A DNA stretch of 64,000 nucleotides. Source: Emiliania huxleyi CCMP1516 (lineage: Eukaryota). This document shows, piece by piece, positions 12,329 to 38,753 of the stretch. The position numbers and the translations under genes are program-made. The DNA is taken from positions 863,581 through 927,580 of the forward strand of contig NW_005202427.1 in the NCBI RefSeq assembly GCF_000372725.1, written 5' to 3'. The notes below the pieces were generated by a model. That model ran no database searches, was not told the DNA's origin, and saw nothing but the letters and a program-made list of their open reading frames with translations. The first letter of the stretch is position 1. The number at the start of each line of letters is the position of its first letter.

Positions 12329-13984
12329 CCTAGCTCCGGCGGCGCCAAGCGCGGCGGCGGCGCCGGCGCCGGCAGCACTCGCCCCGCCGGCGGCGCCGAG
12401 CGCGTTGAGCTCGGAGGCGTAGTTCTCCTTGAACTGGCGGAGCAGCGAGCGGAGGAGCGCATTCGCCTCCGAGATGGCGCGCGGGTCCGACACCTGTGGG
12501 AGATTGCGGGGGAGATTGCGAGAGATGGCGCGAGGTTGTGGGAGATGGCGCGCGGGTCCGACACCTGCTCGTACTGGCGCGAGTAGATCTCGGCTCATCT
12601 CGGCTCATCTCGGCTGATCTCGGGCCTATCTCGTGCCGCAACACCTGCTCGTACTGGCGCGAGTACAGCTCACGCACCAGCATCGACACCGGCGCCACCA
12701 CGTAGTACGACAGGAAAGAGGCCGCCGCCGCGCCGGCCTCGCGCGCCGTGCGGCGCAGCAGCGGCAGCAGCGCGTCGGGGCGGTACATCGAGTGCAGAAG
12801 CACGGCGCCGCCGCCCGCCGCCGCGGCGCAGTAGCCTGCGCGGTGAGGACGCCGACGTCGGGGCGGGGGCGTGCGGTGTTGTGCAGTGTACTTCAGAGCA
12901 CCGCGTGGATACGAGGGATGCGAACACACAGTGAGTATACCGGACTGCGGCGGAGCACAGCTGAGTGCGTGTCCTCTCGAGCGCCGGTCGGAGCATACGG
13001 GTGCGTGCTCCGCTCCGAGGCGCGGAGATGTGGGGAGGTGTGGGGGGAGATGTGGGGAGGTGTGGGGGGAGAGTCTCTCGCTTCTAGGCGCCGGTAGCCG
13101 AGCCAGTTCGNNNNNNNNNNNNNNNNNNNNNNNNNNNNNNNNNNNNNNNNNNNNNNNNNNNNNNNNNNNNNNNNNNNNNNNNNNNNNNNNNNNNNNNNNN
13201 NNNNNNNNNNNNNNNNNNNNNNNNNNNNNNNNNNNNNNNNNNNNNNNNNNNNNNNNNNNNNNNNNNNNNNNNNNNNNNNNNNNNNNNNNNNNNNNNNNNN
13301 NNNNNNNNNNNNNNNNNNNNNNNNNNNNNNNNNNNNNNNNNNNNNNNNNNNNNNNNNNNNNNNNNNNNNNNNNNNNNNNNNNNNNNNNNNNNNNNNNNNN
13401 NNNNNNNNNNNNNNNNNNNNNNNNNNNNNNNNNNNNNNNNNNNNNNNNNNNNNNNNNNNNNNNNNNNNNNNNNNNNNNNNNNNNNNNNNNNNNNNNNNNN
13501 NNNNNNNNNNNNNNNNNNNNNNNNNNNNNNNNNNNNNNNNNNNNNNNNNNNNNNNNNNNNNNNNNNNNNNNNNNNNNNNNNNNNNNNNNNNNNNNNNNNN
13601 NNNNNNNNNNNNNNNNNNNNNNNNNNNNNNNNNNNNNNNNNNNNNNNNNNNNNNNNNNNNNNNNNNNNNNNNNNNNNNNNNNNNNNNNNNNNNNNNNNNN
13701 NNNNNNNNNNNNNNNNNNNNNNNNNNNNNNNNNNNNNNNNNNNNNNNNNNNNNNNNNNNNNNNCGCACCCACCGTGCTCAGCCACTGCCGCTGTATTCGC
13801 TGTGCTCGCCGCCCTCGTACTCACGCGGTGCTCTGAAGACACTGCTCAGTACCCGCACCCCCGCCCCCGAGGTTGGCGTGTTGTCACCGTAGGACGGCGA
13901 CCACCTTCTCTCGCGCGACGACCTTGCGCGCTACGGTGGCCACGCTCTCTCCCGCAGAGCCATCGACCGCATCTGCACTCTCTA

Positions 13985-14029
<45 letters not shown>

Positions 14030-16125
14030 AGGCGGAGGCGGAGGCGGAGGCGGAGGCGGAGGCGGAGGCGGAGGCGGAGGCGGAGGCGGAGGCGGAGGCG
14101 GAGGCGGAGGCGGCGGCGGAGGAGGAGGCGGCGGCGGCGGAGGCGGAGGCGGAGGCGGAGGCGGAGGCGGAGGAGGCGGCGGAGGCGATGGCGGAGGCGG
14201 AGGCGGAGGCGGAGGCTGAGTTTGCGATGCGAGGCGGCGGCGGAGAGTGGGAGTGTGGCCGTGAGAGTGGCGTGTGGCTCGGCCGGTGCCTCCGCCGCAT
14301 ACTGCGCCAGGTCTAGCCGAGATCTCCCCGAAATTGCAATCTCGCCGCTCTACCTCGGCCGCGTACTGCGCCATCAGGCCGTTGATCGCGGCGATGGCGA
14401 GGCGGGAGGCGCCGCCGGCGGCCTCGAGGGAGGGGGCGTGGTGGATGCGCGAGAGCCGGTGGCGCAGCAAGCCGACGTGAGACGCATGCCGGTAGTGCAG
14501 AGCCGTGAGGCGAGACAGGGCGAGCGGCGGCGGAGGTGACTCGGAGGGCAGCGCCGGCGGCACCGCCGCGCTCGCCGCCGCTATCCTGGCCAGCCAATTG
14601 CGAGGGCCGCGCCAGAGCTGGTGGCGCAAGGGGTGCCGCGCCTGACAGCCGACAGCCGGGGTACAGCTGAGGTACAGCCGAGATGCGGCCGAGGTACAGC
14701 CGAGGCACAGCCGAGGCACAGGTACACTCACCTGGCGGGACCACCACTCGCGCGCACGCGACACCTTGAGGGGCGAGAGGGGCGAGAGGGGGGGGGGGGG
14801 AGGTTCAGGTCAGTGGGTGGGCGAGGGCGGTGGGGGGGCGAGGGGTCTGGGTGGCTCAGCGAGGACTTGTGTGCGCCTTGAAGGTCCAGGAAAGGGGCAG
14901 GAAAGGGGCAGGAAAGGTCCAGGAAAGGGGCAGGAAAGGGGCAGGAAAGGGGCAGGAAAGGGGCAGGAAAGGGGCAGGAAAGGGGCAGGAAAGGTCCAGG
15001 ACTGGGTGCGCCTTGAAGGCCAGGTCGAGCAGGGCCAGAAGCCACCAGTCGAGCAGCGCCAGGCAGACGCGCGTGCAAATCGCGTGGCGCAGCGACTCGA
15101 GCGCCGCAGCCGTCGCACCGTCCTTGGCCAAGCCTTCCCCTCCGCCTCCCTCGCCTCCCTCGCCTCCCCCTCCTCCCTCGCCTCCCTCGCTGCCCTCCCC
15201 TCCGCCCTCCCCTCCGCCCTCCCCTCCGCCGTCCGCCTCATCGCCCTCCTCGAGGAGATCGCTCAGGTTGGAGAGCTCGAGCAGGTTGGTGGCCTGACCA
15301 GGGACGACGCGGGAGGGGAGAGAGGAGGGCTCGGACCAGAGGCGGGGATTCTCGGACCAGAGGCGGGGAATCTCTCGGCCCTCTCTCGGCCACCTCTCGG
15401 CCCTCTCTCGGCCACCTCTGCCATCCCTCTGCCATCTCTCTGCCATCCCCTCGGCCATCCCTCACCGATCCGAGCATCGTCCCGATGGAGGCGGGCAGGA
15501 TGGTGCTCAGCGTGCCCAGAGATAGGCGCCGCCGCAGCGTCTAAGAGAGAGGCGCGAGAGTGAGCCGAGAGGCGGACGCCCGGTGAAAGAGGGAGAGAGG
15601 CGCAAACGCAGCCGCCTGCAGCGGGCTGCGCGGCAGCGCCCAGCCGGGCTGGCTACCCGAGGCGGAGGAGGAGGAGGACAGCTCTCGGAGGGGAAGGCCG
15701 CGGGGCGAGCCGGTCCGCTGCTCCTCGGCCGTCAGCACGGAGAACCACCCTCCTCCGCCGACGACGGACGGGGAGGGCCGGAGCGGCGACAACCAACTTC
15801 GGAAGCCCGCCCTGCCGCCGTCAGCGCCACACCCGTCGGCGCTGCCGTCGCTCGCGGCGGCGCCGAAGCTGGCGGAGCGCGAGCACGCCGGCCGAGGCGA
15901 CGCGGCCTTGGCGGCGACGCGTGCGGTGTGCCGCTCCTCGACCAGCGACCACCGCTCGAGCAGGTCGATGACGGCGTCCGGCGACTCTGGCACCGGCTCG
16001 GTCGCGAGCGAGTGTAGGCTCCAGAAGAGGACCGACTCGAGCTTGCTGGCCGAGGCTGGCGGGTAAAGCGGCAGGTGGCGAGCAAGGTCGTCCGAGGCGC
16101 GTGCGGTGGCAGCAAAGCCTTCCAT
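10451..16125 (-). CDS. NCA2: NCA2/DGS1-like mitochondrial membrane protein (multi-exon, interrupted by a gap)
   Basis: Spliced C-terminal peptides FEQQMQSPVYSMARGPLLQLLLIQTQYMRRELLVQMGAMDTLMAQNSLTATMSAMLPG and EDCADLESDTFDVHHKMLILQRMYR resemble the NCA2 domain. Candidate ATG at 16125 (MEGFAATAR); start is uncertain. Confidence 0.72.
12836..13098 (-). mobile_element. Introner-like repeated intron, copy A (NCA2-like gene)
   Basis: GC donor GCTACCGGCGC-CTAGAAG...GAGAGGACACGCACTCAGCTGTGCTC...CACGCGGTGCTCTGAAGTACACTGC...CGCAG. Splicing restores NWLG/YCAA. Confidence 0.75.
13111..13763. other. Assembly gap
   Basis: Run of N. Confidence 1.
13764..13892 (+). mobile_element. Introner-like repeated intron, copy D (3' part only; 5' part lies in the gap)
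   Basis: CCCTCGTACTCACGCGGTGCTCTGAAGACACTGC...GAGGTTGGCGTGTTGTCACCGTAG ends at acceptor AG 13891-13892. Confidence 0.72.
13893..13987 (+). CDS. Orphan exon resembling the EF-hand region of a PP2A B'' (PR72-type) regulatory subunit
   Basis: Translates DGDHLLSRDDLARYGGHALSRRAIDRICTLY directly after the acceptor, then runs into (GGC)n. Confidence 0.6.
13988..14216. repeat. (GGC)n/(GGAGGC)n microsatellite
   Basis: Seen directly. Confidence 0.98.
14882..15000. repeat. Intronic 11-bp tandem repeat (GGAAAGGGGCA)n
   Basis: Seen directly. Confidence 0.95.
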
Positions 16126-16883
16126 ATATGTACGTGTACAGATGTGGTGCGCACGAGCTCGTCGCCGCGCCACACCTTGACGGCCTTGTCGCCCGAGCCA
16201 GTGAGGACTTGGCCGTCGTCCGCCGCCGCCTGGTTGGTGTGCCCGCGGCGCGTGAGCGTCGGCGAACAACCGGCCCACTCTTCACAGCACACTGGCACGA
16301 CAAGGGCGCAGACTGGCGCGGACTGGCACACACACCACCGGAGCCGCCTAAGGGGCAACTCCGTGCACTGACGGTCGGCCGTCAGAAACCACGCCTGCGT
16401 GGATCGCGTCACACCAATCCTCGCTACCCAACGCGGCCAAAGGATATCCACCTCGCCCGACTGCGACATGGCCCGCGGGTGGCACACGCCGCGAACCTCC
16501 ATCCGCGTCTTTTTTTTATGGCGCGGACCCGCGGCGACCTCGGGAGACGGACGGGACTCGGCGACGCGGTGTTTCGGGTGTCTGTCGCGCCCGAGTGTCC
16601 TGTCGTGGCACGTGGGATCGGTCTTCGGAGTCCACGCGCGGAGATCGTGTTTTTAGGGTTTTGAGTAAGCTTGAGCTTGTCGGATTCACATATGCATGAG
16701 AAATGAGAAGTCTCGCGCCACCTCACAACCTGAACATGTGGATGAGAGACTGAGAAAAGATCTCAGAGGGACCGCCGCACGCCAGCGGTCGCGGCCACGA
16801 CCGCTGGCCGCTCCACAAAATGCTCCCCGCGCGGAGCAGCCCCCCCGCCCCCCGCCGGTCAAGCTGAGCTCCACCGCCCGTGC

Positions 16884-19800
16884 TCACTCGCCCTTGAGCA
16901 CCGCCGTCGGGGGTGAGAAGCCGCAGTCCGCCGGTGGTCCTGCTGTCCGCTGCGGCAGCCTGTCCACGCACGCGCGAAAGGCGTCGAGCCCTGCCTGCTG
17001 CAGCTGCAGCAGCTGCTCCATCTTTGCGCCTACACCTCGCCCCCGCCGCCGGTGAGGGGCCTGGGTGGACCCGAAGGGGCTGACCGCCTCTCGGGGAACC
17101 TCGGGTGCTCTCCGCGTGCGGTGTCCCGCGCGTCCCGCGCAAGCTCGGGCAGGCTCGGGGAATCTCGGGGAATCTCGGGGAATCTCGGGGAATCTCCGCG
17201 CGCCGTCCCACGCGTCCGCGAGTTCGCCGCTGTTGATGGCGTCGACCCAGCGGTGAAGGAGGCACTTGAGCTCTGCACTCAGCTCGAAGTTGGCAAACCT
17301 GCAGTGTGTGTGAGAGTGAGCGGGCAAACCGTGAGAGTAAGTTGGCAAACCTGCAGTGTGTGTAGTGGAGGGGCAGGTAGTAGCGTGGGTGCTGCGTTCA
17401 GCAGCGTCGGAATGCGAGGGCTTCACTCTAAGGCCTGTCGAAGGGCTACGAGCCCGAGGCCCCGCGCGCGCGCACGGCTTGTCTACAGCCGAGCGCGCGT
17501 CGTAGCGAGCGCTCGTTGCAGTGCGGGGGGGGGGGGGGAGGGGCGTCGTCGACTCCCCGCATCTACCTCTGCAGACAGCAGGAACGGCTTTGCGCGGCAC
17601 TCGGCTCGCACGAACCGCTCGGCCTCGGGAGGCATCCCCGTTGTCGAGCCTGGCGAGGACGTGTCGTGGACGTGTCGTTGACGTGTCGCTTCGTGGACGT
17701 GTCGCGGACGTGTCGTGGACGTGTCGTTGACGTGTCGCTTCGTGGACGTGTCGCGGACGTGTCGCGGGCGTGTCGTGGGCGTGTCGCGGGCGTGTCGTGG
17801 GCGTGTCGTGGGCGTGTCGTGGACGTGTCGTGGACGTGTCGTGGACATGTCGTGGACATGTCTCGCAAGAGGAGCGTGGCGCGGTTCGGCGACGGTGGCA
17901 ATGCTCGGCGACGGCGGCTCCGCTCACCGAACCAGACGACCCGCTGCGGCAGCTTCTGCAGGTCGGCGCGGCTCAGTCCGAAGACGCCCGAACACGGGCT
18001 CCAGTAGAGCGGCTCCATCGAGCCTACCCGGCTCAACCGGCTCGGCTCCTCTCGGCTCCTCTCGGCTCCTCTCGGCTCCTCTCGGCTCCTCTCGGCTCCT
18101 CTCGGCTCCTCTCGGCTCCTCTCGGCTCCTCTCGGCTCCTCTCGGCTCCTCTCGGCTACAGCGGCTGCATTGAGCCTCGCGGTCCGATGAGCTGTGGGGC
18201 GTTGTGGCACGGCCATCCGGCATCTACATGCCATCCGACCGGAGCGGCGCACGTTGCCCGTCAGCGGCGCGGTCGTCATGGTTTGCCACTTTGGGAGCGG
18301 GTCGAACGGGCTCCGCGGGGGCATAAACATCGGGCAGCACGAGAAGGGCAGGATGTCGTCGAGCCTGCGCAGGGTCGCGGAAGGGTCTCGGAAGGGTCTC
18401 GGAAGGGTCTCGGAAGGGTCTCGGAAGGGTCTTGCGAACGGCAAGATCTCGGCCAGATCTCGGCCAGATCTCGGCCAGATCTCTCGGTCGGGGCTGTCTC
18501 GCAAGATACACGCGCGCCAGAGGTCGTAGAGCGACACCGCCGTCAGAAGCTGCAGCAGGGTGTACAGCGCGGCCGGCAGCAGCCAGAGCGGCTCGTGCCT
18601 ACGTGCGCTTACACCAACATCAGCGTATTGTGTCTTCAGAGCACCGCGCGAATACGAGGGAGGCGACTACAGTGAAAACCCAGCCGAGTACGGTCGAGGA
18701 CAGTTGAGTCCGTATCCTCTCGATCGCTAGGTGGAGCACAAGAATCCGTCTTCTAGCGGCTCATGCTCAAAGGCGTGGCGCAAGTCGGCGGAGAGGAGGG
18801 AGGAGAGCGGGAAGGCAAACACGAGCAGCGAGGCGGACCAGAACGACACGAAGTCCAGCCCTTGCAGCCACAGGATCCCGGCGTGGAAGGCGAGGCCGTG
18901 GGCGCACCAGAGCGGCGAGAGGCGTCCGCTGAAGGGAGCCACGGCGAAGGAGAGCTCGAAGAGGAGGGCCCCGCTGGCGAAGATCGTGAGGAGGCGCGGC
19001 GACTTGACCAGCCGCCACTGCACCGACCGCGTCAGAGCCTGAGAGAACAAGCGTCTCCACCTCCCCAGGAGCTGGCGAGCCGCCACGGCACTACCACTGG
19101 CGTGTCAGGCGCCGAGTCGGCAGGCCGGGACCACATGCCCTCGAGAAAGTAGTGCTGGAGGGAGGTGCCTATGTGCATCGTAGGTAGTCGGCAGGCCGGG
19201 ACCCCACACGCTCGAGAGACAGCCGTGCTGCAGCGAGGTGTCGAGGTGCCGAGGCCCCAGTAGCGGCGGAAGCGGAACGAGCAGAGCACCTTCGCGACGC
19301 CGGACGAGACGTACCCGGACGCGAGGTACACTCGCAGCAGCTGCACGGCGGGCGGGCGCGCGGGGTGAGACGACGCGAGCACTGGAGAGGGCGGCGGTGC
19401 GGCAGTGGCGACAGCTAGAGAGCGTCCGGAGACTGCCGAGGATGGCTCTGGCACGCGGGAGGCGGGCGACTGGAGGAGGGGCCCGGGAAGTTCCCGGAAG
19501 CCTCCTCCGGGAGGCCACCTGCAGAGGCCACGGAGGCGGAGGCGGCGACGGCGGCGAGGCGGCCGCGTCGAGTGAAGGGGCGCAGGCGAGCAGCAGCAGC
19601 ACGGCGGGCACCAGGATCGGGTTGTGCCCCGACAGGGTCGCCTCGGCGTAGAGCTGCGGAAAGTAGAGCAACGAGAGCGCAAAGGCGCCGAATAGGAACG
19701 GCCGCGGCGCGAGCGGGGCGAGCGACGCGAGCAGGCAGGCAGTGAAGGCGACGCCGACGGCACGCATCTGCAGCGGCGTGAGTGCAGGCGGTGTGATGAT

Positions 19801-19974
19801 GCCGTACAGCTTGCTGGGATGCGCTCCCAAGCCTCGCTTTGACGCCAGCCCGATGCCGCTGCTGTGGAACCACGTGTAGAAGAGCTGGTACTGACTCGAG
19901 CTGGTGAGCATCGAGAGGATCAACCAGCCGCAGTAGCATAGCTGAAAGGCTCTCACAGGGTCCTCGGGGAGCAT
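16884..19974 (-). CDS. HTTM-like (vitamin K-dependent carboxylase-related) multipass membrane protein, multi-exon
   Basis: ATG 19974 MLPEDPVRAF. Exons read WPLQ/LLRVYLASGYVSSGVAK, GALLFELSF...GLAFHAGILWLQGLDF, ILPFSCCPMF, ending ...AVLKGE* at 16884. Confidence 0.68.
17656..17862. repeat. Intronic 11-bp tandem repeat (GGACGTGTCGT)n
   Basis: Seen directly. The same unit recurs on the opposite strand at ~33690-33865 and ~45990-46040. Confidence 0.95.
18040..18157. repeat. Intronic 10-bp tandem repeat (CTCGGCTCCT)n
   Basis: Perfect array seen directly. Confidence 0.97.
18599..18766 (-). mobile_element. Introner-like repeated intron, copy B (HTTM-like gene)
   Basis: GC donor GCATGAGCCG-CTAGAAGACGGATTCTTGTGCTCCACC...GGTGCTCTGAAGACAC...GTTGGTGTAAGCGCACGTAG. 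Splicing restores HAFE/HEPLWLL. Confidence 0.85.
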
Positions 19975-20087
19975 GCTGTCCTCCGCGGAGATGGGACGCG
20001 GGTGGATGCGATTGGGCAGCGACTCGTGGCTGCACCGTCGCCAGCACTCGTTCGCCGCGGAGACTAGTCGTGGAGGAACATCTCACT

Positions 20088-20416
20088 TCACAGCCTTGTT
20101 ATTGAGAAGAAAATACCTCGTATGGCGCTGTGTGCTGGTCTGTGAGAGGTTGAGGTGCGAGCCCTGGAGGCCCTGGGGATGGGGGGGGACTACCCGCGGG
20201 CTTAGAAGGCCCGCGCGCAGGGGGGTGGGGCATCTTTCACAGATAGGTTGATAAGAAACAAGATCAAGAAGCTCACACAGCCTTGTTATTGAGAAGAAAC
20301 TACCTCCCATGGCGCTGTGCGCTGGTCTGTGAGAGGTTGAGGTGCGAGCCCTGGAGGCCCTGGGGATGGGGGGCGACTACCCGCGGGCTTAGAAGGCCCG
20401 CGCGCAGGGGGGTGGG
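20088..20416. repeat. Tandem duplication of a ~140-bp unit (period ~187 bp)
   Basis: CACAGCCTTGTTATTGAGAAGAAA...GCGCAGGGGGGTGGG at ~20088-20229 and ~20276-20416. Confidence 0.93.
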
Positions 20417-23281
20417 ACTCTGGGACATTGAGACCGGTCATGCAGAGAGAGATTTTTAGCAATACCAAACAACTCTAACACTCACACGTAATTTGGGGCC
20501 TGTTTTTGTGTTTGTCATGCATGAATGAGTGCGCGACACGCATGTTGCGAGCAGCGTTGTTGATGTTTCACACAAAAACACAACCACGGACCCAAGACGC
20601 ATCCTTCACAGCTTCTTTTCAAAAGAGAATTTTTCAATACAAGTCTTGTACGTCTGTGTGCTGTGTGGTGCACGCCCTCCGAGCGCGAGAGAAGGCCGAC
20701 TTATCAGCTGGTCGGCCGCCATTCGGGCCTCCCAGCCTGCTGCGGCGGCGCGGCCGGTCGAGGCCGGGCTCGGCCCGGCCCGCGACGGCTGGCCGCCGAC
20801 GAGCGCGCTCGCGCTGCTCGTCAAGATGGCGGCGGTGGCGATTGCGGCGACAAAAGTTCAGGCGTACAGCGCTCAGGCGCCTGTCGTCTTTCGTCTTTTG
20901 TCGCATTTCGCACACGCGCACGCCGCGCGACCCGCGTCGCTCCGCGAGGGCATGAGCCTTCCGCGATTCGATCCCGCAGCCAAAAGCTGCTCGCTCGAAC
21001 CGCGGCCGACTCTGCCATCGCGGCCGCAGCTGTCGAGCTCTCCAGAAAACTGGTGCCTCATATGCTGCCTCCCTGCGGATGCTGCCGGCGAGCCTGGCGG
21101 TCCGCTGTACAAGGAAGTGCTGACTCGATGCCCCCCCCGCAATCTTCTACCCCCACGACTCGGAACACGAATGTGACAGGACCATCGGGTCCTTCAGCCA
21201 CCAAAGCGGGATCACCCGAGAGCAGCTGAGCCTGCCTCTGGCCTCGCCTCCCTCTCCTTCAGGCATTCGTGGCATCCTATGGGTCGTCCAGAGTACGTGG
21301 CTGGGTCCACAGCGCCTCACTGGCACTATTGTAGCCCTGGCCGGTGCGCGTGCGGAGTTGAAGTTCCGGAGTGAAAATTCAAACGCGTTCTCTCACGGTG
21401 ACCAAAAAATGTCCACCTCAGAGGCACCTCCGGAGGCAGGCCGCCGCACGCCGGCGACACAGCTCCAGCTGTCGAAATGACCCGCAGCTCCTCTCAGAGC
21501 GGGAACTGTGACGAAAGTTGACTGAGGCGGTTGTCAGGAATCATCATACGAATCACATGGTGGCTTTCTCATGACAGGAGACCGCCCGACCACTCCTGGG
21601 TGGCACTGCCACCGGTGTCGCTCGACGTCCTGTCGACAGCGTGCCGACAGCGACACAGACCATGTGGGACGCGCCGAGTATCGACCTCTACTGCTTACCC
21701 AGCCTTCGAGTGTATCCTGGCTGTGGTCCCACACCCACTGGTGTCCATCTCAGAGACCGCAGGAGGTCATGAGGGTCGATGGGAGAGCCAACCCCACAAT
21801 GCCTAAAAACCCAGCCCAGTATCGACCTCTGGCTTGTCAGTCGCTATGTGGTGTGTGGTGCACGCCCTCCGAGCGGGGCGGGGTAGTCTGCCCGTCTGGT
21901 TGTCGCCCACCTCTCCAGGAGAAAGGCTGCTCTATTTTTTTTATTATGTGACCGTGTCATGTGTGTGTCCGCCAATTTGTTCTACGGTCTCTCTTTCGCT
22001 ACGTGTTCAACGTCGTGTTGAACAGTGTTCAACACCACGGCGCTGTTCACAGCGCGCGCGGACGGCCGATCTGAGAGTCTCCCTCCGCTGGACTTTTGTA
22101 AAGCATGCTTGTGGCAAGTTATGGACGCTAGTATCGACCTCAGAGACCCAAACCCGAATTAATAATTAAGGCTCAAAGTATGGTTGAACAACCGTTGAAC
22201 AAACAGGTTGCACAACGAAAAGAGACTAGTGCGACCGCTAGACGGCGGTTCCCGCCGGCCCCAAGGCTGCCCAGCCCCAGTACCACACCGGCCACATACA
22301 CCGTGGCGCTGGAGTCGGTCAGTGAGGCACTAGACGGGCTACGGAACCATGCGCGCGCCGGCCGGACAGGCTGCGCGCAGGGGCCGCGCCGCCTCGATTT
22401 CGCACCTCCGCTCCGCGGCCGGCTGAGGGGCTAGCTCGCCCGGCGACAAGCCCAGCCATCGCCCAGCGCCCCGTATCGACGGGGGGCACGCAAAAAAACC
22501 GCACCTACGACTAGGGTGAGCCCGTGAGGGCGTCGGTGTGGGCCGCGGGCGGGCTGCCAGGAGGGCGCGGGTGGGAGCATGGGAGATGCACCACCGCTCG
22601 ACGAAGACGCGCCCGACGAAGCCCTGCTTGCGGAGGATGGTCGATCCTCGCCTACTAGTGTCGGGCGTGTGCGAAAAAGAGCGCAAATCGGAGCTCAACT
22701 CGCGCGCGGCTGGGAAAGGGGTGCCACACCCCTCCGAAGGCGCCTCGCGAGGAGCTGCTGCTGCCCCCAAACGCGCGCTCGGGCAGCACGTCGGCGCGCC
22801 TGCGGGGTTGGGGAGGTGAAACTATGCTTGCTGGCACGCGCATCCCGCACCACCCCCACGTCCGCGCGCACCATGCCGCCATCCCACCTCACAGCCAAGC
22901 GCCATCGCCGTCGGACGCGGCGACGCCGAGCGGTGGCCTCGCAGACGACGAGCGCGATGAGGCCGCCGCGCCGCCGGGGTGGCCGGCGCGTGCCAGCCGC
23001 TGGCCCGTCCAGCGTGGCGGGACCGGCTCGCCCATCCTGGCCCGCGCGCTTGCCGACGCGAGAAGATCGCGCGAGAGGGCAAAATGTGGCAAAATGGCCC
23101 TGTTTGCCAACCCCTCGACGAATTCACGTCGGAACGAGTCGGATCGACGACTCGCCGCCTGCACCAGCGTGTGCGCCTTGCAATTCTATACAGAATCGAT
23201 ACTTGGTACGTTTTCTGAATCGCTCGTGGAGAGGTCTACGTACTAATCTTAAGTGTACATGTACTAATCTTAAGTGTACAG

Positions 23282-24134
23282 GCGAGTTCGTCGACCGCTT
23301 CCTGCGAGCAGCGCCGGGGCAGCGGCGCGGCGCGGCGGGCGGCGGCGCGGACGGCGGCGTGGGCGGCGGCGCGGGCGGCGCGGCGGACGGCGCGGACGGC
23401 GCGGTGGGTGACGCGGCGGAGGGCGCGGCGGAGGGCGCGGCGGAGGGCGCGGCGGAGGGGGTGCGGATCGGCTACTTGGCGCAGCACGGCCTGTTCGAGC
23501 AGTTCCCGCGGCCAATACTAATTCTAATACTAATACTAATACTATTGCTGGTATGAGTATCACCCAGGCCTGTTCGAGCAGTTCCCGCGGCCAATACTAA
23601 TTCTAATACTAATACTAATACTATTGCTGGTATGAGTATCACCCAGGCCTGTTCGAGCAGTTCCCGCGGCTTCGGCGCGACTGTGAGGTGCCGGCGGCGT
23701 GCGGCGTGAGCCGCGGGTGCGTACTGATACTAATGCTAATGCTAATGCTAATACTAATACTCATTCAGGTCGTCGGCTACAAGCTCGTGCGCCTCTACGA
23801 CGCCGCGCAGACGCCGCTGCTCTGCCCGCGCGCGGCGGGCGGCGGCGGCACCGACGCGCAGGGCAACGTGAGCGCGGTCGACGTGGAGAAGCCCGACCTG
23901 CTAATACTAACACTAATCGTGTACCAATACTAGTCTTAAGCGGATGAATACTAATCTTAGTAAAAAGTACAGGTCGACGTGGAGCAGCCCGACCTGCGCC
24001 GCTTTCCCGAGTTCGCGCGCGCGCGCTGCGCGGCGGTGGTGCTCGGGCCGGGCGAGGGCCTCTTCATACCCGCGGGGTGCTGGCACCACGTGCGGAGCCT
24101 GACGCCAGCCTTCAGCGTCAGCTTCTGGTTCTGA
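23282..24134 (+). pseudogene. JMJD5: JMJD5/KDM8-like JmjC protein, C-terminal exons only; HxD segment not found
   Basis: [71 protein letters not shown]. Introns at 23489-23646, ~23717-23768 and 23877-23972. Confidence 0.75.
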
Positions 24135-24331
24135 GGTCCGGTCCAGCTTCGCAAGTCGAGACTCTAAGAGAGACAAGGACAAGGCATCAAGAGTAAGGTA
24201 AGGTAAGGTAAGGTAAACTTCTCCACACACACGAGGTGGTGGGGCAAGGGGGGGCAACCCTCGCGTCTCCACGTCTGACGACAGGAGCCCCACGGCATTC
24301 AAAGTGCAAGGCCCAGTGCGCGTGGGTGAGC

Positions 24332-24363
<32 letters not shown>

Positions 24364-24468
24364 GTGTGTGTGTGTGTCACGTCACTGCATCCTCCGCCGG
24401 TTCCTCCCGTCGCCTCTTCTTTGTTCGAATGTTTTTCAATCCATCCTTCACGAAGCCCTCCCATGTAG

Positions 24469-24540
24469 CTAGCGTTCTTGGCGAATGTCTCGAAATGGCC
24501 AGCAGGCGCTGTCGGCTTCGTCGCCATCGTCCTCCTCCTC

Positions 24541-24589
<49 letters not shown>

Positions 24590-26904
24590 GGTAGGTAGAG
24601 CTCGCCGTCAGGTAGGTAGAGCTCGAAGCCTTCCTTACCGCGCACGGCCTCCTTGATGGCCGCCTTGCCCTCTTCGCCGAGGTTGTAGTTGTAGCGGACG
24701 TTGAGCTGTGCAAGCAAGCCGCCCTCAGAGGCACGAAGAAGGAGGGGGGTGTGGCGGCACGCACCTTCGTTAGGGAGGCCCGGACACCAAGATCAGAGGC
24801 GATCAGAATGGAATCGTTCGGCTCCAAGCCCTGGCCGCGGAAGTCGGCGCTGGTCTGCTCCAGTCCGATGCCACAGAGCGAGATCTTCTTCTCCTTGGCA
24901 ACCGTAGCGAGCATGGTGGCCGACTCCTTGTCGAGATTGTTGCAGAGCAAATTGGCCGCCGTTAGCGAGGCCATGACGCTGATCTCAGGCGCGATCAGCA
25001 TCGCATCCGCTGGGCGGAGGCTCTGGCGAGAGAAGTTGAGGCGGGTCTCGTCGCCCTTGAAACCGCACAGAGTGGTCAGCGTGGGGTGCTCCTGCTTGGC
25101 CTTGAGGAGCATGGAGGCAGCGTCCACGTCGAAGTCGTTCCGCAGCAAATTTGCTGCCGTCAAGGAGGCGCTCGCAGCAATCGCTGGCGCGAGTGCTTTG
25201 GCACCCTCATCCCCAATTTGATTTGAGTGGATGACGAGGGTGGTCAAGGACGTGCTGGCCGCGATGGCTGGTGCGAGCGCTTTTGCGCCCTCGTCAGCGA
25301 GATAGTTGTCCGCGAGGTTGAGGCTCGTCAGCGTCGAGGCACTGTCGCGCAAGGCGTCTGCGATAGCCTTGATGCCAGTCGCATCGTACGTGCCTTCGCC
25401 AAACTTCGTTGCGCCGCACAGCGCATTGTCGCTCAGATAGAGCGACTTCAGCGAGGCCATGACGGGCATCAGACCCGCAACGACGAAGCCGCCCACGACG
25501 CCGATGCCCTTGTTCACCAGTTCGAGCGTGGTGAGCGACGCGGCGCGCATCTCCTTGACGGGGATCTCGTTGAACTTCTCGATCTTGGGGTTGGAAAGGA
25601 CAGTGGCCGAGAGCTGCGAAGCGCCGTCGCCCGAGATGTCGTTGTTGCGCACGTCCAGTTCCGTCAGGAACGTGTTTGCCACGAGGACCTTCGCGAGGGC
25701 CGCAGCTCCATCGAAGCCGAGCTGGTTGGTGCGTAGGGAAAGAGACACGACCTTGTACGCCTCCACGGCGTCGCCGAGCGCCTCGACGTGCACGGCGCGA
25801 ATCATCTTGTCTTGCAGATCGACCGTCGTGCCGGCCTTGCAGGCGTAGAGGACGACCGCCTTCCCATACGCCTCGATCATCGTGTCCTCCAACCCCACGA
25901 TGCTCTTCTTGTCGTTGGGGTTGGACAGGTCGCCGCCGCTCGGCATGTACTTCTCGCCCAGCACCTTCACCGCCGGGTACTGGTGCAAGCCGCCGCCCGC
26001 CTTGATCGCGTACAACGGCACCTCGCGGCCCAGCATCTCGGCCCACAGCGAGAAGACAAAGTACTCGCAACGACACCCTGCACATATGCGATTTTCATGC
26101 CTAATTTGTACTCGGTACTCTTCACGATTACTACGAGAGAAGGGCAGCTAGCCGCACAGCCACGGCGGCCGTACTGCGGGATGTCTTCCGGGTACTTCGC
26201 CGCGTCGTGCTTCAGCTCCATTTCCTCGGTCGGGACGAGCATGTAATTGCAAAGCGTGGCGTACTTGATCAAGCTCATGACGCCCTTGAGCTTCTCCGTC
26301 TCGTCGTCCTGGAAGAGTTGTGGCGATCACTCATTTGATGGAAGAAGCGACAATGCGCATCATGACGAGGCGAGCTAACAAGAGATGGGCCGACCTGGTA
26401 GATCGACTGCCAGTCGCACCACAGCACGACGTCCTCCGCCCGCAGCCCCTTGTCGGCGATGAGCGCCTCCACGCCCGCGACGATGGTCCGCCACTTGAGG
26501 TTCTTCTTCTCGCCGCCCTGGTAGTCGGGCGCCCCCTTGTCATACGGGTTGTTCGGGTCGTTCGTATCATCCACAAAGGCGCGGTCCCACCAGGTGTGGC
26601 TGATGAAGATGGCGACCTTGCCCTGCGCAGTGACAATCGTGCCATCGAGCGCGCCGTCCACGACCTTGCCAGTGCCGCCCTCGACCCAGGCGAAGCGGAT
26701 GAGCAGGCCCGAGGCCAGCGCATCGTCGCGCCACGACTTGACGGACTTGAAGATGCGCTTCTGCTTTTTGAAGGCGAGGAAAGGCATCACGAGCATCGCC
26801 GTGCTCATCTCGAACGCGGGGGTCGCGGCTGCCTGCCCTCGCTGCACGCAGGGAGCGGCCGGAGCCTCCGGCGCGGCAGCCGGAGCTGCCACCGTAGGTG
26901 CCAT
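24469..26904 (-). CDS. HET-like N-terminal domain + ribonuclease-inhibitor-type LRRs + acidic tail
   Basis: ATG 26904. Motifs IFISHTW, PDY, LWCDWQSIYQ/DD, SLIKY and YGRRGWCRCE appear after splicing 26309-26394 and ~26078-26157. LRRs of the type LTSLNLADNYLADEGAKALA; poly-Asp tail; stop at 24469. Confidence 0.8.
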
Positions 26905-27007
26905 GTACACGATCACACAGCTACGGCCATTCTCCACTTGTGTGCAACGACGTTGAACACTGTTCAACGCCGTTGAACACGATCGAGTAACCGTCTAACA
27001 TCCAAGG

Positions 27008-27112
27008 AAAGAAAGAGAGAAAGAAACCACGGGCCCAAGGGAGGGATGGGAGGACGGCACGCCGCCACCACACAGGGATTTTAAGGAGAAGTGTGTGGTG
27101 CGCTAGCCGTCC
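27008..27112 (-). mobile_element. Short 5'-truncated retroposon copy (stem-loop + (TTTC)n tail family)
   Basis: Matches ~39988-40089 and 40252-40362. Flanked by CCAAGG at 27002-27007 and 27113-27118. Confidence 0.7.
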
Positions 27113-27221
27113 CCAAGGCTAAAGAATTCTCGGCTAAAGAATTTCGCATTCGGGAAAACTTTTTTCTTCAGAGCTGCCTGCGCGCCGCCCGCGGCGAGGA
27201 AGCGACCGAGGGTGAGCAGCT

Positions 27222-30185
27222 ATGAACAAGCTCTTCCAGCAGATGAACAAGATCGAGGCCGAGATAACGGCCGGCATCAAGGACGGCATCAAGGACGCGG
27301 CGGCCGTCGATTCCGACGCGGCGGCCGCGGCGGACAGCCGTCGATCCTCCACTGCAGCCGCCACCTCCTCTGCGGCTCCTGCGGATGCCACGGCGGCCCC
27401 AGGCGAGTCACAGGAGGCGACGACGATCGAGCGGCTGCGTGCGCAGGTCCGCCGACTCGAGACGCGGCTGCAGGAGAAGACCGAGTTGGTCGCCGAGAAG
27501 GACGCGCAGATTGCGGCCGTCCTCGCCGAGGGGGAGGGGCTGAGCCGGCGGCAGGCCGAGCAGGAGTCGACCATCCGCAAGCTGCGCGGCACCCTCCGCG
27601 AGGCGCAGGAGGCGGCGGAGGAGCACGCCGCCGCACTGACCGAGGCGCGCTCCGAAACCTCGGAGCTGCGGAGGCAGCTGCTCGAAGGCGCCGCCGCGGG
27701 TGCCGCCGCCGCCGCGGCGGCAGGCGCGGAGGGGGCAGCGGTGCCGGCGAGCGGGTTCGCTGCGGCGGAGGCGGCGGAGGCGCGCGAGGCGGCGCTCACC
27801 GCCAGCCTCGCCGAGCTGCAGCTGGAGAATGCCAAGCTGAGCCAGGCGGGAGGTGGCGGGACCTTCTAGCAACCTTCTAGGAACCGTCTAGGAACCTTCT
27901 AGGAACCTTCTAGGCGGCGAGGTGGAGGGACGAGGGCCTCACCTCACAGCTGGGCGACGTTGGACAAGCAGGAACCTCCTAGGAGCCTTCTTGGACCCGT
28001 CTAGGCCTCACCTCACAGCTGGGCGAGCTCGAGGCGCGGTCCGGCTCTGCCGAGGCGCAAGCCCGCGAGCTCGCCGCCGCGGTCGCAAAGGAGACGCAGC
28101 CGCTGCTGCGGCAGGTTAGGGCTTCCACCCGATCTCCCCCGATCTCCCCCGATCTCCCCCAAAATCTCCCCCGATCTCCCCCACGACCTCACCCATCTCC
28201 TCACCCACTCCTTCCGCCTCTCCCTGGCCATCCCCGATCTCGCCTTGCCACCCCCCCACCCCCCACCCCCCCCCGAATCTCCCCCGATCTCGCGCTGCGC
28301 CAGGTGAGCGGTCTGCAGGCGCAGCTCGCCCAGCTGCAGGCCGCGTGGAAGGCGAGCGACATCGCCCCACATCTCCCCATATCTCCCCACATCTCCCCAT
28401 ATCTCCCCACATCTCCCCATATCTCCGCGTGGAAGGCGAGCGACGCGGCGCTGCGATCCCAGCTCGCGGCCCCTAGAAGCGGAAGACGGATTCTTGTGCT
28501 CCACCCAGCGATCGAGAGGACACGGACTCAACTGTGCTCGATCGTACTCGGCTGGGTTTTCACTGTAGTCGCACCCCTCGGTATTCACGCGGTGCTCTGA
28601 AGACACTGCACGATCCCGTACTCCCGCCCTGAGGTTGGCGTATTCAGCACGCAGGCTCTCGGCGGCCGAGGGGGCGGCCGCCGCGACAGGGGACGAGGCC
28701 GCCCGCCACCTCGCCGCCGCCGCGAGCACAGGCGAGCAGCTGCGTGAGGCGACCGACCTAGATGCAGTACCTACCGCACCGCCCACGGGACTGAACCCAC
28801 ACTGGATTCGGTACTCTGGAGGTATGGTACTAGCGGCCGACGTAGATGCGGGCTGACCGACTGCTCACAGACCCGTGGCGTCCAGCTCGCACCCCAGTCC
28901 AACTCGCACCCCAGTCCAACTCGCACCCCAGTCCAACTCGCACCCCAGTCCAACTCGCACCCCAGTCCAACTCGCACCCCAGTCCAACTCGCACCCCAGT
29001 CCAGCTCGCACCCCAGTCCAGCTCGCACCCCAGTCCAACTCGCACCCCAGTCCAACTCGCACCCCAGTCCAACTCGCACCCCAGTCCAACTCGCACCCCA
29101 GTCCAACTCGCACCCCAGTCCAACTCGCACCCCAGTCCAACTCGCACCCCAGTCCAACTCGCACCCCAGTCCAACTCGCACCCCAGTCCAACTCGCACCC
29201 CAGTCCAGCTCGCACCCCAGTCCAACTCGCACCCCAGTCCAACTCGCACCCCAGTCCAACTCGCACCCCAGTCCAACTCGCACCCCAGTCCAACTCGCAC
29301 CCCAGTCCAACTCGCACCCCAGTCCAGACGTGCTCCTCCCTCTCGTGCTCTCGCGCTCTAGGCGAGCGACGCGACGCGGCGCGCCGAGCAGGCGCTCGCC
29401 GAGGCGCGAGACAAGGCCGAGGCGCACACGGCCGCGGCCGAGCGGCGTGCGGCGGAGGCGGAGGCGGCGGCGGCGAGGACGGGGGCCGCGCTAGAGCGAG
29501 CAGAGGCGGCGAGGAGTCAGGCGGAACGCGGTGCAGCAGAGGCGCGCCAGCGCGCCTCCGCCCTCGCCGACGACCTCGAGAAGGAGAGAGGCGAGAGGCG
29601 GGACGCGAGGAGACTGCACGAGCGACAGCTCGCCGCCGCCGCCGCGAAGCGGTCGCCCCCCGCCCGCCGCGGCCCCGCGGCGTCTTGGCAGCGTGAAGGG
29701 CGGCTCCTCACCCCTCGGGCTGCGGACAGGTCCCAACCCGCTGGCGGGGCGAGCGGCGGGGCCGCGTGGAGGGAGTCGGCGCTGCTGCAGCCAACCCGCC
29801 TTTCCAGCGGCGGCGGCGGCGGCGGCGGCACAGCGGCGGCAGCGCCTCTCGACCCGCGGCAGCAGGGCGAGCTGACGGGCCTCCGCTCCTTGGTTGCGGC
29901 GATGCAGGCCAAGGAGCAGACGCTCATTGACTCGCTCGTCCAGCTGCACGTGCGGCGGCGAGCAGCTGCCGGCGAGAAGGCACGGAGGCGCTGTTGACGC
30001 CGCCCGCCCGGGAACAGGTGCGGATGGAGCAGCTGGAGGCTGAGGCGGCGGAGGCGCACGGGGCGGCGGCGCGGCTCAAAGCGTTGCGCGACGAGCACGC
30101 GGTCGCACTCGAGCTGTTGGGCGAGAAGGAGGAAAAGCTCGAGGAGCAGGCGCGGCTATTGCAGGAGCGTGGTGTGGCCCATTAA
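27222..30185 (+). CDS. TMF1: TATA element modulatory factor 1 / golgin-like coiled-coil protein, multi-exon
   Basis: KDAQIAAVLAEGEGLSRRQAEQESTIRKLR and C-terminal EHAVALELLGEKEEKLEE resemble the two TMF signature regions; ETQPLLRQ motif also present. Confidence 0.8.
28462..28654 (+). mobile_element. Introner-like repeated intron, copy C (TMF1-like gene)
   Basis: GC donor GCTCGCGGCCC-CTAGAAGCGGAAGACGGATTCTTGTGCTCCACC...GGTGCTCTGAAGACAC...GAGGTTGGCGTATTCAGCACGCAG. Splicing restores LRSQ/LSAAEG. Confidence 0.85.
28881..29326. repeat. 17-bp minisatellite (CCAACTCGCACCCCAGT)n, ~26 copies, intronic
   Basis: Head-to-tail units with occasional A/G variants and no spacers. Confidence 0.97.
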
Positions 30186-36956: not shown

Positions 36957-38753
36957 TCAGGAGTGCGAGGTCTCGAGGCAATCGACCGTGCGGGGCAGCC
37001 GCACGCGCAGTCTCCGCACCCGCTCTGCCCAGTCCGCCGGCGGTGAAGCGTGCGAGAGCGCCACGACGCCGTCGGCCACGCGCGCACGTAAGTTTGTCTC
37101 GTTGAGCCAGTCGGTGCCTGTCACATGCAGGAGCAATAGCTTTCCCGCGCCGATGCCTCAGAGCGGGCGGCGAGGGCCGTCCCCGTCGGGAGGGGGCTGT
37201 CACGCCCGCGATCTCGCTCGCTGGAGGGTTGTGGGGGTTGTGTTTCGCCTCTTGTTTCGCCTCTCTCTGGCCATCAAGCAATGCTGTCTGTCTGAGTCTG
37301 TCAGGTCTCGACGCGCCAAGCGCCTGGCTCGTGCGCGCCGCCGACGCCATAGCCGGTGTCTGCGATGACGCCTCGGCCGCCCGCGATCCGGGAGAGGCCG
37401 CGCCTGCCGCGAGTTCTCTTTTCTGACGTCTCTGGGCGTCGTGCCGTCTTTGGGTGTCGTGGCCGCGCGTCGCGACCTGTGCGCCCAGCAATCCCCCGGG
37501 GGCCCAGTGATGCGACCGGTGACAGCGTGCCTCGTGTCGGCTCCCGAGCCAATCGTGCGCAGCGAGTGTGTGTGCGTGTGGGGCCCGTCCTCCATGCTCC
37601 GAGGTGTGTACCGCTGACTGGCTGACTGACTGAGTCGCGGCTATAGGCCGCGCGCCAGGTGGCAAAGTTGTGCGGGTCGAGTCGCACCCGAGTCGAGTGC
37701 GCGGCGGTGCGGCCACCGGACGTGTGCAAGAAGGCGATCGGGCACGCGTCGAGGAAGGGCGAGAGCCAGCCCTCCTGGTCCGGCAGCCACGGGGAGACGT
37801 CGAGCGAGAGGCGTGCGCGCGGCAGCGCCTCTCGTACCTAGACGGGGAATGTGAACTCACTGACCTCACGTTGGGCCCGCAAACCACCGCTGCACTCACT
37901 GCACAAGTCACTGCATTTGCATTCACTTGCATTCTGCACTGCATTCCCCCCCCCCCCCCCCTTCCCCCCTTTGCATTCCCCCTCTAGGCTCGCGTACCCT
38001 CGCGCCGATCCGGCAGAACAGCGCCACCAGCTCGCTCTGCTGCATCCCTCCGCCGCGCTGCGTCGCCGAGGCGTACTGCGCCAGGTCGGGCTCGACCAGC
38101 CAGACCGGAGAGGCGTCGGCGCCGAGCCGCTCCGCCGTCGCGTTGGCGTAGTGCGAGTACAGCTCCAGGATCTCGCCTTGCCGACGACGCACAAAGGCGG
38201 CGCCGCGCTCGCAGAGCGACCCGACGCCTCCGCCGCCTCCGCCGCCGCCGCCGCCTCCGCCGCCGCCGCCTCCTCCGCCGACGCGGGCCGCCGCCGCGGC
38301 GACGTCGCAGTCGAGCAGCCCGTCGGAGTGTCGCGCGAGGCCGGCGGCGAGGTAGGCGTACAGCAGAACCGTCTGCGAGCGGGCGCGCGCGTGCTCGAGC
38401 GCCCGGCCGTGCGACCGGTCGTTGAAGCGGACGCCGTGCCGCCTCGACGGCGGCCCGATCCACAGCGTGACATAGTCCGCGGCAGCGGCGGCGCTGGGCC
38501 AGGCGGCGCCGAACTTGAACGCGCAGCCGCTCCGGCGAGGAGGAAGCCGTGCGCGCGCGTGGTGCCGGGACGGCGCTCCTTTGCCGCACACGCAGCAGTG
38601 CTCTCCCGGCGACCCAAACTGCAGAGACGCTGCCCAGCCGTTTACGACCCGGCCGCTGGCGCAGTGGCCCTCGCGCTCGTAGGCCGCGCAGGTGCCGCCG
38701 AACTTGTTCGCCCAGCCCGGCGAGTCGGCGCAGCCCTGACGAGCGACCATCAT
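36957..38753 (-). CDS. Cys-rich module + uncharacterised glycoside-hydrolase-like (distantly GH6-like) domain, multi-exon
   Basis: CADSPGW...CCVCG, then LYAYL..GLLDCDV..LC..GAAFVR..WLVEPDLAQY / LPRARLSLDVSPW..FLHTSGG / VIADTGYGVGG / WLNETNLRARVADGV...SHS* (TGA at 36957). Start is uncertain. Confidence 0.62.

Follow-up and report, generated by a model that had tools for sequence, protein, structure and literature searches.

Within the 64,000-nt stretch of Emiliania huxleyi CCMP1516 analysed here (contig NW_005202427.1, positions 863,581 to 927,580; hereafter the window), a repeat of about 181 nt makes up introns of unrelated genes. It is very probably a non-autonomous cut-and-paste DNA transposon, that is, a miniature inverted-repeat transposable element (MITE), acting as an introner in the Emiliania/Gephyrocapsa lineage. 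We propose that a DDE-type transposase, supplied in trans, would insert the element after a G in exons, so that a site reading exon-G-(8 bp)-exon would become exon-G-(8 bp)-element ending AG-G-(8 bp)-exon. The intron would then consist of the borrowed G, the left copy of the target-site duplication (TSD) and the element up to its AG and, as the last G of the element replaces the borrowed one, the mRNA would be unchanged. The donor would be the G plus the first target base (C, T or A), which the spliceosome of this alga would tolerate. An initial annotation, made from the sequence alone, had suggested that the element supplies the branch point and the acceptor and borrows its donor from the insertion site, and this idea held in every test run.

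A profile built from 20 clean copies found exactly four places in the window. These are the copies A, B, C and D, with the coordinates and lengths that the initial annotation had given them and, in A, B and C, GC...AG borders (L numbers are loci of the metagenome assemblies introduced below):

12836-13098, minus strand: intron A, GC-AG, 263 nt; the same site carries the element in L030/L045.
13098, 13089-13097 and 13088-12835, minus strand: donor G, left TSD copy (one extra base) and element of A.
About 13021-13080, minus strand: microsatellite insertion inside A, which has duplicated the left terminus.
12827-12834, minus strand: right (exonic) TSD copy of A.
13764-13893, plus strand: 3' part of element D, the remainder lying inside an N gap; intron part 13764-13892, ending in TAG. 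D is complete in L044/L057, as a 191-nt GA-AG intron with a perfect 8-bp TSD in a gene for a PP2A B'' regulatory subunit.
13894-13901, plus strand: right (exonic) TSD copy of D.
18599-18766, minus strand: intron B, GC-AG, 168 nt.
18766, 18758-18765 and 18757-18598, minus strand: donor G, left TSD copy (7/8) and element of B.
18590-18597, minus strand: right (exonic) TSD copy of B.
16887-19974, minus strand: host gene of B, encoding an HTTM-domain protein in 10 exon blocks.
28462-28654, plus strand: intron C, GC-AG, 193 nt; its splicing is predicted from the reading frame only.
28462, 28463-28471 and 28472-28655, plus strand: donor G, left TSD copy (one extra C) and element of C.
28656-28663, plus strand: right (exonic) TSD copy of C.

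B and C were 93.6% identical over 125 nt (E 5e-50), whereas A and D showed 73-86% identity to the other copies (E 1e-11 to 1e-25), in keeping with the divergence noted earlier by eye. The core then described as shared is indeed common to the four copies, but its 5' part is well shared by B and C only, and the GC donor attributed to the complete copies applies to A, B and C but not to D, whose donor is GA. Removal of the introns leaves an open, codon-biased frame in B and C, in A (via L045) and in D (via L044/L057), as had been described. The N gap beside D (13111-13763) lies between genes pointing apart; L057 reaches at least 720 nt into it from the D side and never meets L045, so that the gap must be longer than drawn or mis-scaffolded.

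We scanned three metagenome assemblies for exact matches to a 22-nt pattern derived from the four window copies. This yielded 59 loci that the flanks reduced to 48 site entries, or about 46-47 sites (L003 shares a flank with L011/L012, and L010 with L022), and all four window sites were among them. Visual curation of both ends was possible for 43 entries (L007, L015, L020, L022 and L035 are without one end) and, L011 being a repeat of L003, 42 sites with both ends were analysed. Their hosts include genes for kinesin, HPAT, TCP-1, U32 peptidase, HTTM and PP2A B'' proteins. The definition of introners in PMC9860276 asks for four or more introns that resemble each other and lie in non-paralogous genes; here there are 42 such sites. 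Discounting insertions, the introns measure 146-270 nt, and the element has the ends CCTA...YAGG.

The flanks of the element carry a duplication of fixed length. At length 8 the identity between left and right flanks was 0.63, as compared with 0.315 +/- 0.024 (maximum 0.40) in 1000 shuffled pairings, and at lengths 2-7 and 9-14 it was 0.26-0.37; length 9 stood marginally above its own shuffles, owing to an extra base in some copies. In the donor register, seven sites matched at 8/8 positions, 10 at 7/8, 10 at 6/8 and 15 at three to five, so that the flanks agree at six or more of the eight positions in 27/42. The TSD is therefore most probably 8 bp, with 9 bp less likely. A 10-bp TSD was rejected: the last base of the exon is a G in only 30/42 sites, which places that base outside the duplication. 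Accordingly, the 10-12 nt copy of the exon start originally described is in fact an 8-bp duplication plus the donor G. Terminal inverted repeats (TIRs), which had been thought not to be evident, are present in imperfect form: over 17 nt the consensus ends agree at 13 positions (counted on the printed consensus without its first C), and individual copies matched on average at 7.8/17 in register versus 3.5-4.9 when slid by 1-3 nt. Fixed-length TSDs and TIRs are traits of MITEs and of TIR DNA transposons in general, and the element has both, its TIRs being imperfect and register-specific. In addition, a motif of 9-10 nt occurs in its 9-nt form six times in forward orientation when up to two mismatches are allowed, and also, inverted, at the left end, as might be expected of transposase binding sites. 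The window also holds what appears to be a sister element:

37837-37988, minus strand: sister element with a different interior, 152 nt, CCTAGA...TCTAGG, TIR 14/17, 8-bp TSD (7/8).

Its termini are the same as those of the 181-nt family, and it is predicted to constitute a GT-AG intron (37997-37838, minus strand), the frame being restored when this intron is removed; no second copy was found in the window or the loci.

These data bear on the possibility that the repeat is a short interspersed element (SINE) or another retroposon without long terminal repeats, spread by target-primed reverse transcription. The weakness of the TIRs, the apparent duplications of 9-12 nt at some sites and the SINE-like repeat, with its direct repeat of 10 bp, that lies inside the L027 copy and shows that such elements occur in the genome, would agree with this explanation. 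However, the duplication signal is sharply peaked at 8, both ends are intact in 43/48 site entries (the rest being mostly cut by contig ends), there is no tail, the terminal motif is inverted, the sister element has a near-perfect TIR and none of eight loci gave an Rfam match at gathering score. Retroposition is thus largely refuted and we regard it as very unlikely. The predicted RNA fold of the element was unremarkable (z -0.42 and -0.45).

As to the kind of transposon, members of the hAT superfamily have 8-bp TSDs and termini beginning with CA or TA. The element shares the TSD length but not the termini, which are CC...GG, and an assignment to hAT was not adopted; we know of no superfamily that combines CC...GG ends with an 8-bp TSD. 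A 16-nt end pattern found 28 loci in viral contigs, none of which had a profile match, and these were taken as chance. The excerpts of PMC4455052, PMC12973397 and bioRxiv 2024.10.30.620910 contain no table of superfamily termini.

The splice sites follow from this structure. Among the 42 sites the donor was GC in 24, GT in 8, GA in 8 and GG in 2 (the GG cases, L004 and L031, are doubtful), it was identical to the first two bases of the downstream exon in 39, and positions 3-9 of the introns showed no consensus. Relative to the start of the element, the donor lies at offset -9 in 29 of 43 rows, at -10 in 12 and at -8 in 2. Curated E. huxleyi donors are reported as 56% GC, 40% GT and 4% GA (PMC4028052), and GA donors are in excess here (8/42 vs 11/241 in the curated genes; Fisher p 0.003). 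A branch-like motif, CT(G/C)A or CCGA, lies near -23 in 34/42 sense ends versus 5/42 opposite ends, and this motif, about 23 nt before the AG, would be the branch point. Although the opposite end would also give YAG followed by G in 33/42, the presence of the branch-like motif at one end only would explain why a single orientation survives. Similarity among the introns reaches the acceptor and begins at intron base 9-11, at the edge of the filter in PMC9860276. It could be argued that the repeat is a mere passenger inside introns of other origin, such as tandem duplication or the repair of breaks at AG/G sites. The window does contain introns suggestive of such events, one (28352-28435) filled with microsatellite sequence between long direct repeats and another (19249-19169) that reproduces the next exon in degenerate form. 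However, the acceptor of the introns studied here is supplied by the element itself, the start is fixed 9 nt after the donor, and at 42 sites the element spans the intron end to end with no remnant of a prior intron on either side, so that we find this explanation very improbable.

Orientation and frame were examined with a codon model at 37 testable sites (five of the 42 were dropped, four for short flanks and one for a 3-nt offset); shared ancestry among the copies enters the orientation, frame and motif counts alike. The sense strand was favoured at 37/37 sites, and at 32/32 outside the training genes of the model, which bears out the earlier view that the copies lie in sense orientation and end with the acceptor AG, here carried by the element. 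Phases called independently on each side agreed in 32/37, as compared with 1/37 and 5/37 when the junction was shifted. Pfam matched 18/73 exon pieces, none in the hosts of A, B or C, and two domains joined exactly across the element, kinesin PF00225 (model 288 to 289, GA donor) and HPAT PF23452 (model 164 to 165). Likewise, the exons on either side of D, with its GA donor, match consecutive residues (176-201 and 202-229) of PDB 4mew_A, human PP2A B''. A protein homologue search with the host exon of A gave no usable match. A strictly sense orientation and an almost exclusive presence as whole introns are also what would be seen if excised introns had spread at the RNA level by reverse splicing, as proposed for fungal introner-like elements. 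Nevertheless, the initial 9 bases of the intron are particular to each site and repeat the adjoining exon, which whole-intron reverse splicing would not yield, and the RNA fold is not unusual; reverse splicing is, in our judgement, hardly credible for this family.

Direct evidence of splicing comes from copy B. RNA contigs from four of four runs (three studies) follow the exon to position 18764, that is, the B donor plus three letters common to the next exon, and then leave the window, while the transcript-derived protein P0006, a UniRef protein labelled Emiliania huxleyi with an HTTM domain that matches the host gene, reads across the junction as predicted. Splicing at the element ends is thus supported by RNA contigs and P0006 in B, and by continuity of frame or domain only in the other copies. 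The same site tells about the origin of the intron. Orthologues from three clusters of related haptophytes (P0003 from Tisochrysis lutea, P0004/16/17, and P0005) are single open reading frames (ORFs) across the B site that end in unrelated tails further on. The tails of P0003 and P0004/16/17 begin where the window gene also has an intron, and such read-through tails suggest that the ORFs were called on genomic DNA. Since they are uninterrupted at B, intron B would have been gained in the Emiliania line, as anticipated for an introner. The HTTM gene as a whole (16887-19974) has nine introns, seven of them within a region that Tisochrysis and another relative have as a single ORF, and this comparison of sequences suggests heavy lineage-specific intron gain.

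The absence of intron B from these orthologues also speaks against ancestral introns homogenised by gene conversion, a process that would account for neither the TSD nor the TIR. In its favour, B and C alleles share one variable site in a crosswise manner (window B/C vs L040/L049), and at one kinesin site the element of L003 differs from that of L011 by 12% between assemblies, the exons differing by 1-3%. Both patterns may reflect gene conversion among copies, or assembly chimeras; as the source of the family itself, homogenisation of ancestral introns is scarcely conceivable.

Several observations weigh against interpreting the family as introner MITEs. The TIRs are weak, most copies matching at the first four positions only and almost never at positions 5-7; both ends were delimited by visual curation, with an AGG picked as the right end, whose invariance is thus partly built in; and the choice of 8 over 9 bp for the TSD depends on terminal symmetry. 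Neither the window nor the loci contained an autonomous partner or transposase with the same ends, and the core pattern had no match in viral contigs. An empty allele was not seen, all four window sites being occupied in the metagenome assemblies and the D site in DNA runs X5 and X7 as well. At B, the RNA contigs display the donor side only and not the landing point, and a genomic origin of the orthologue ORFs is deduced from their tails. The contig listed for C (28436-28610, run X12) is unspliced, and no RNA contig covers both exons of D and hence no junction. Finally, the Cupin_8 match of L051, which is two-sided, leaves about six model positions over. With regard to unspliced RNA, read-through has been reported for 89% of inspected E. 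huxleyi introns (PMC4028052).

The family seems to stem from an old burst of insertion. Identity to the consensus averaged 82% (63-90%; 62 copies), which indicates that the family is old, and pairs from different loci averaged 73%. Summed contig depth over the conserved core relative to flank was about 800x in DNA run X7 and about 300x in X5, figures that are not a copy number but that agree roughly with the 47 or so exact-pattern sites provided that the pattern picks up about one in ten copies. The genome-wide total is probably several hundred copies, in a haploid genome of 98 Mb (PMC10290126). Hence, the high copy number expected from four copies in 64 kb is upheld to the extent of hundreds, but that local count would imply thousands and overstates the genome-wide density. 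We found 15 further copies or fragments within 95 kb of loci, all oriented like the first and seven of them with a well-kept core, versus fewer than one expected from several hundred copies per 98 Mb. It follows that copies are clustered about tenfold or more, or that many old copies escape both counts. Except for B and C (rank 1 both ways), copies from the same locus were not most closely related to one another; a signal of local hopping would be masked by an old, star-like burst.

Aureococcus anophagefferens, a GC-rich alga tolerant of GC donors, reportedly carries MITE-like introner elements with one splice site carried and one co-opted (Huff et al. 2016). The route of intron gain proposed here is itself established, since introners derived from TIR transposons that carry an acceptor and recruit a donor have been described (PMC9860276; PMC12130899; review PMC11282704). 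Like the E. huxleyi element, one of these is short and non-coding, has TSD and TIR, carries the acceptor, recruits the donor and leaves the mRNA unchanged. It differs in having a TSD of 4 bp instead of 8 bp; in E. huxleyi, moreover, if the TSD is taken as 8 bp, the donor G is not part of it and gives way to the last base of the element, and donors are GC, GT or GA. Closer in TSD length is an 8-bp family of A. anophagefferens (PMC9860276, Fig. 2F), although it belongs to a different lineage and adds 12 nt to the mRNA, whereas the E. huxleyi element adds none and is much older (82% to consensus); the two are likened here by structure. Fungal introner-like elements share sense-oriented whole introns in unrelated genes but have neither TSD nor TIR (PMC9860276). 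As for E. huxleyi CCMP1516 itself, introner families are listed in PMC9860276 Table S6 and PMC12130899 sd07, with lengths of 37-70 nt and TSD/TIR entered as "?" or N/N; one is labelled "co-opt 5', carry 3'" with "10bp terminal direct repeats". The comparison that the initial annotation called for finds families in the same host, but their 37-70 nt and lack of GA donors do not fit the 146-270 nt of the present introns. The literature searched, including passages of two newer genome papers, held no description of a 181-nt family, which is apparently undescribed, being set apart from the published E. huxleyi families by length and labels only. The published filter required similarity within ten intronic bases and annotated introns (PMC9860276), and a family start at base 9-11, together with frequent GC and GA donors, may be why it was missed.

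These results point to a specific source, open to testing, for hundreds of non-canonical introns in the coccolithophore that has been studied most, whose majority of GC donors has been attributed to the GC content of the genome (PMC4028052). They also indicate that old introners of this kind can escape similarity pipelines built on annotated introns; gene models of E. huxleyi are often wrong at intron borders (PMC10290126). Furthermore, one constant intron body with no donor consensus past the first G represents a natural donor panel. More tentatively, an unclassified transposon group with CC...GG ends and an 8-bp TSD might have spawned several MITE families (the present one, the sister at 37837 and possibly a 70-nt family) that built a sizeable share of the GC-AG and GA-AG introns. 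Mass insertion, and not GC content alone, could then have driven the lax 5' splice sites, and the clustering of copies could mean targeted insertion. The GA donors (8/42 vs 11/241) would fit this speculative scenario, as the donor is fixed by position rather than by consensus.

Other repeats were noticed beside the element. Introns of about 70 nt that have inverted ends of their own and end in TACYAG/G form a second repeated family, seen in the window (28772-28833), in L057 (429-510 and 1141-1214) and in L051 (1003-1066); its match to the published 70-nt E. huxleyi families is one of length only. Microsatellite insertions with 10-nt units and site duplications of 12-40 nt were seen in the window (28352-28435), in copy A and in L002, L005, L011, L017, L019, L027, L033 and L055. 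One of them makes up a GC-AG intron alone and the others duplicate element termini, so they look like a second route to new introns. The degenerate exon copy at 19169-19249 is an 81-nt GC-AG intron, spliced in P0006 and retained in P0009 and in a contig of run X14. A repeat of about 115 nt without an Rfam match lies at 24224-24337 of the window and in L003, L005, L010, L012, L017, L019 and L027, where it sits inside the element and, like a SINE, shows a short tandem tail and a direct repeat of 10 bp; derivation of a second repeat from U1 was dropped, as Rfam gave no support. A repeat of about 160 nt (window 37477-37633) is inserted at different positions in the element copies of L013 and L020. 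Lastly, telomere-like CCCTAA runs occur inside introns of L014, L019 and L027, some with site duplications at their edges.

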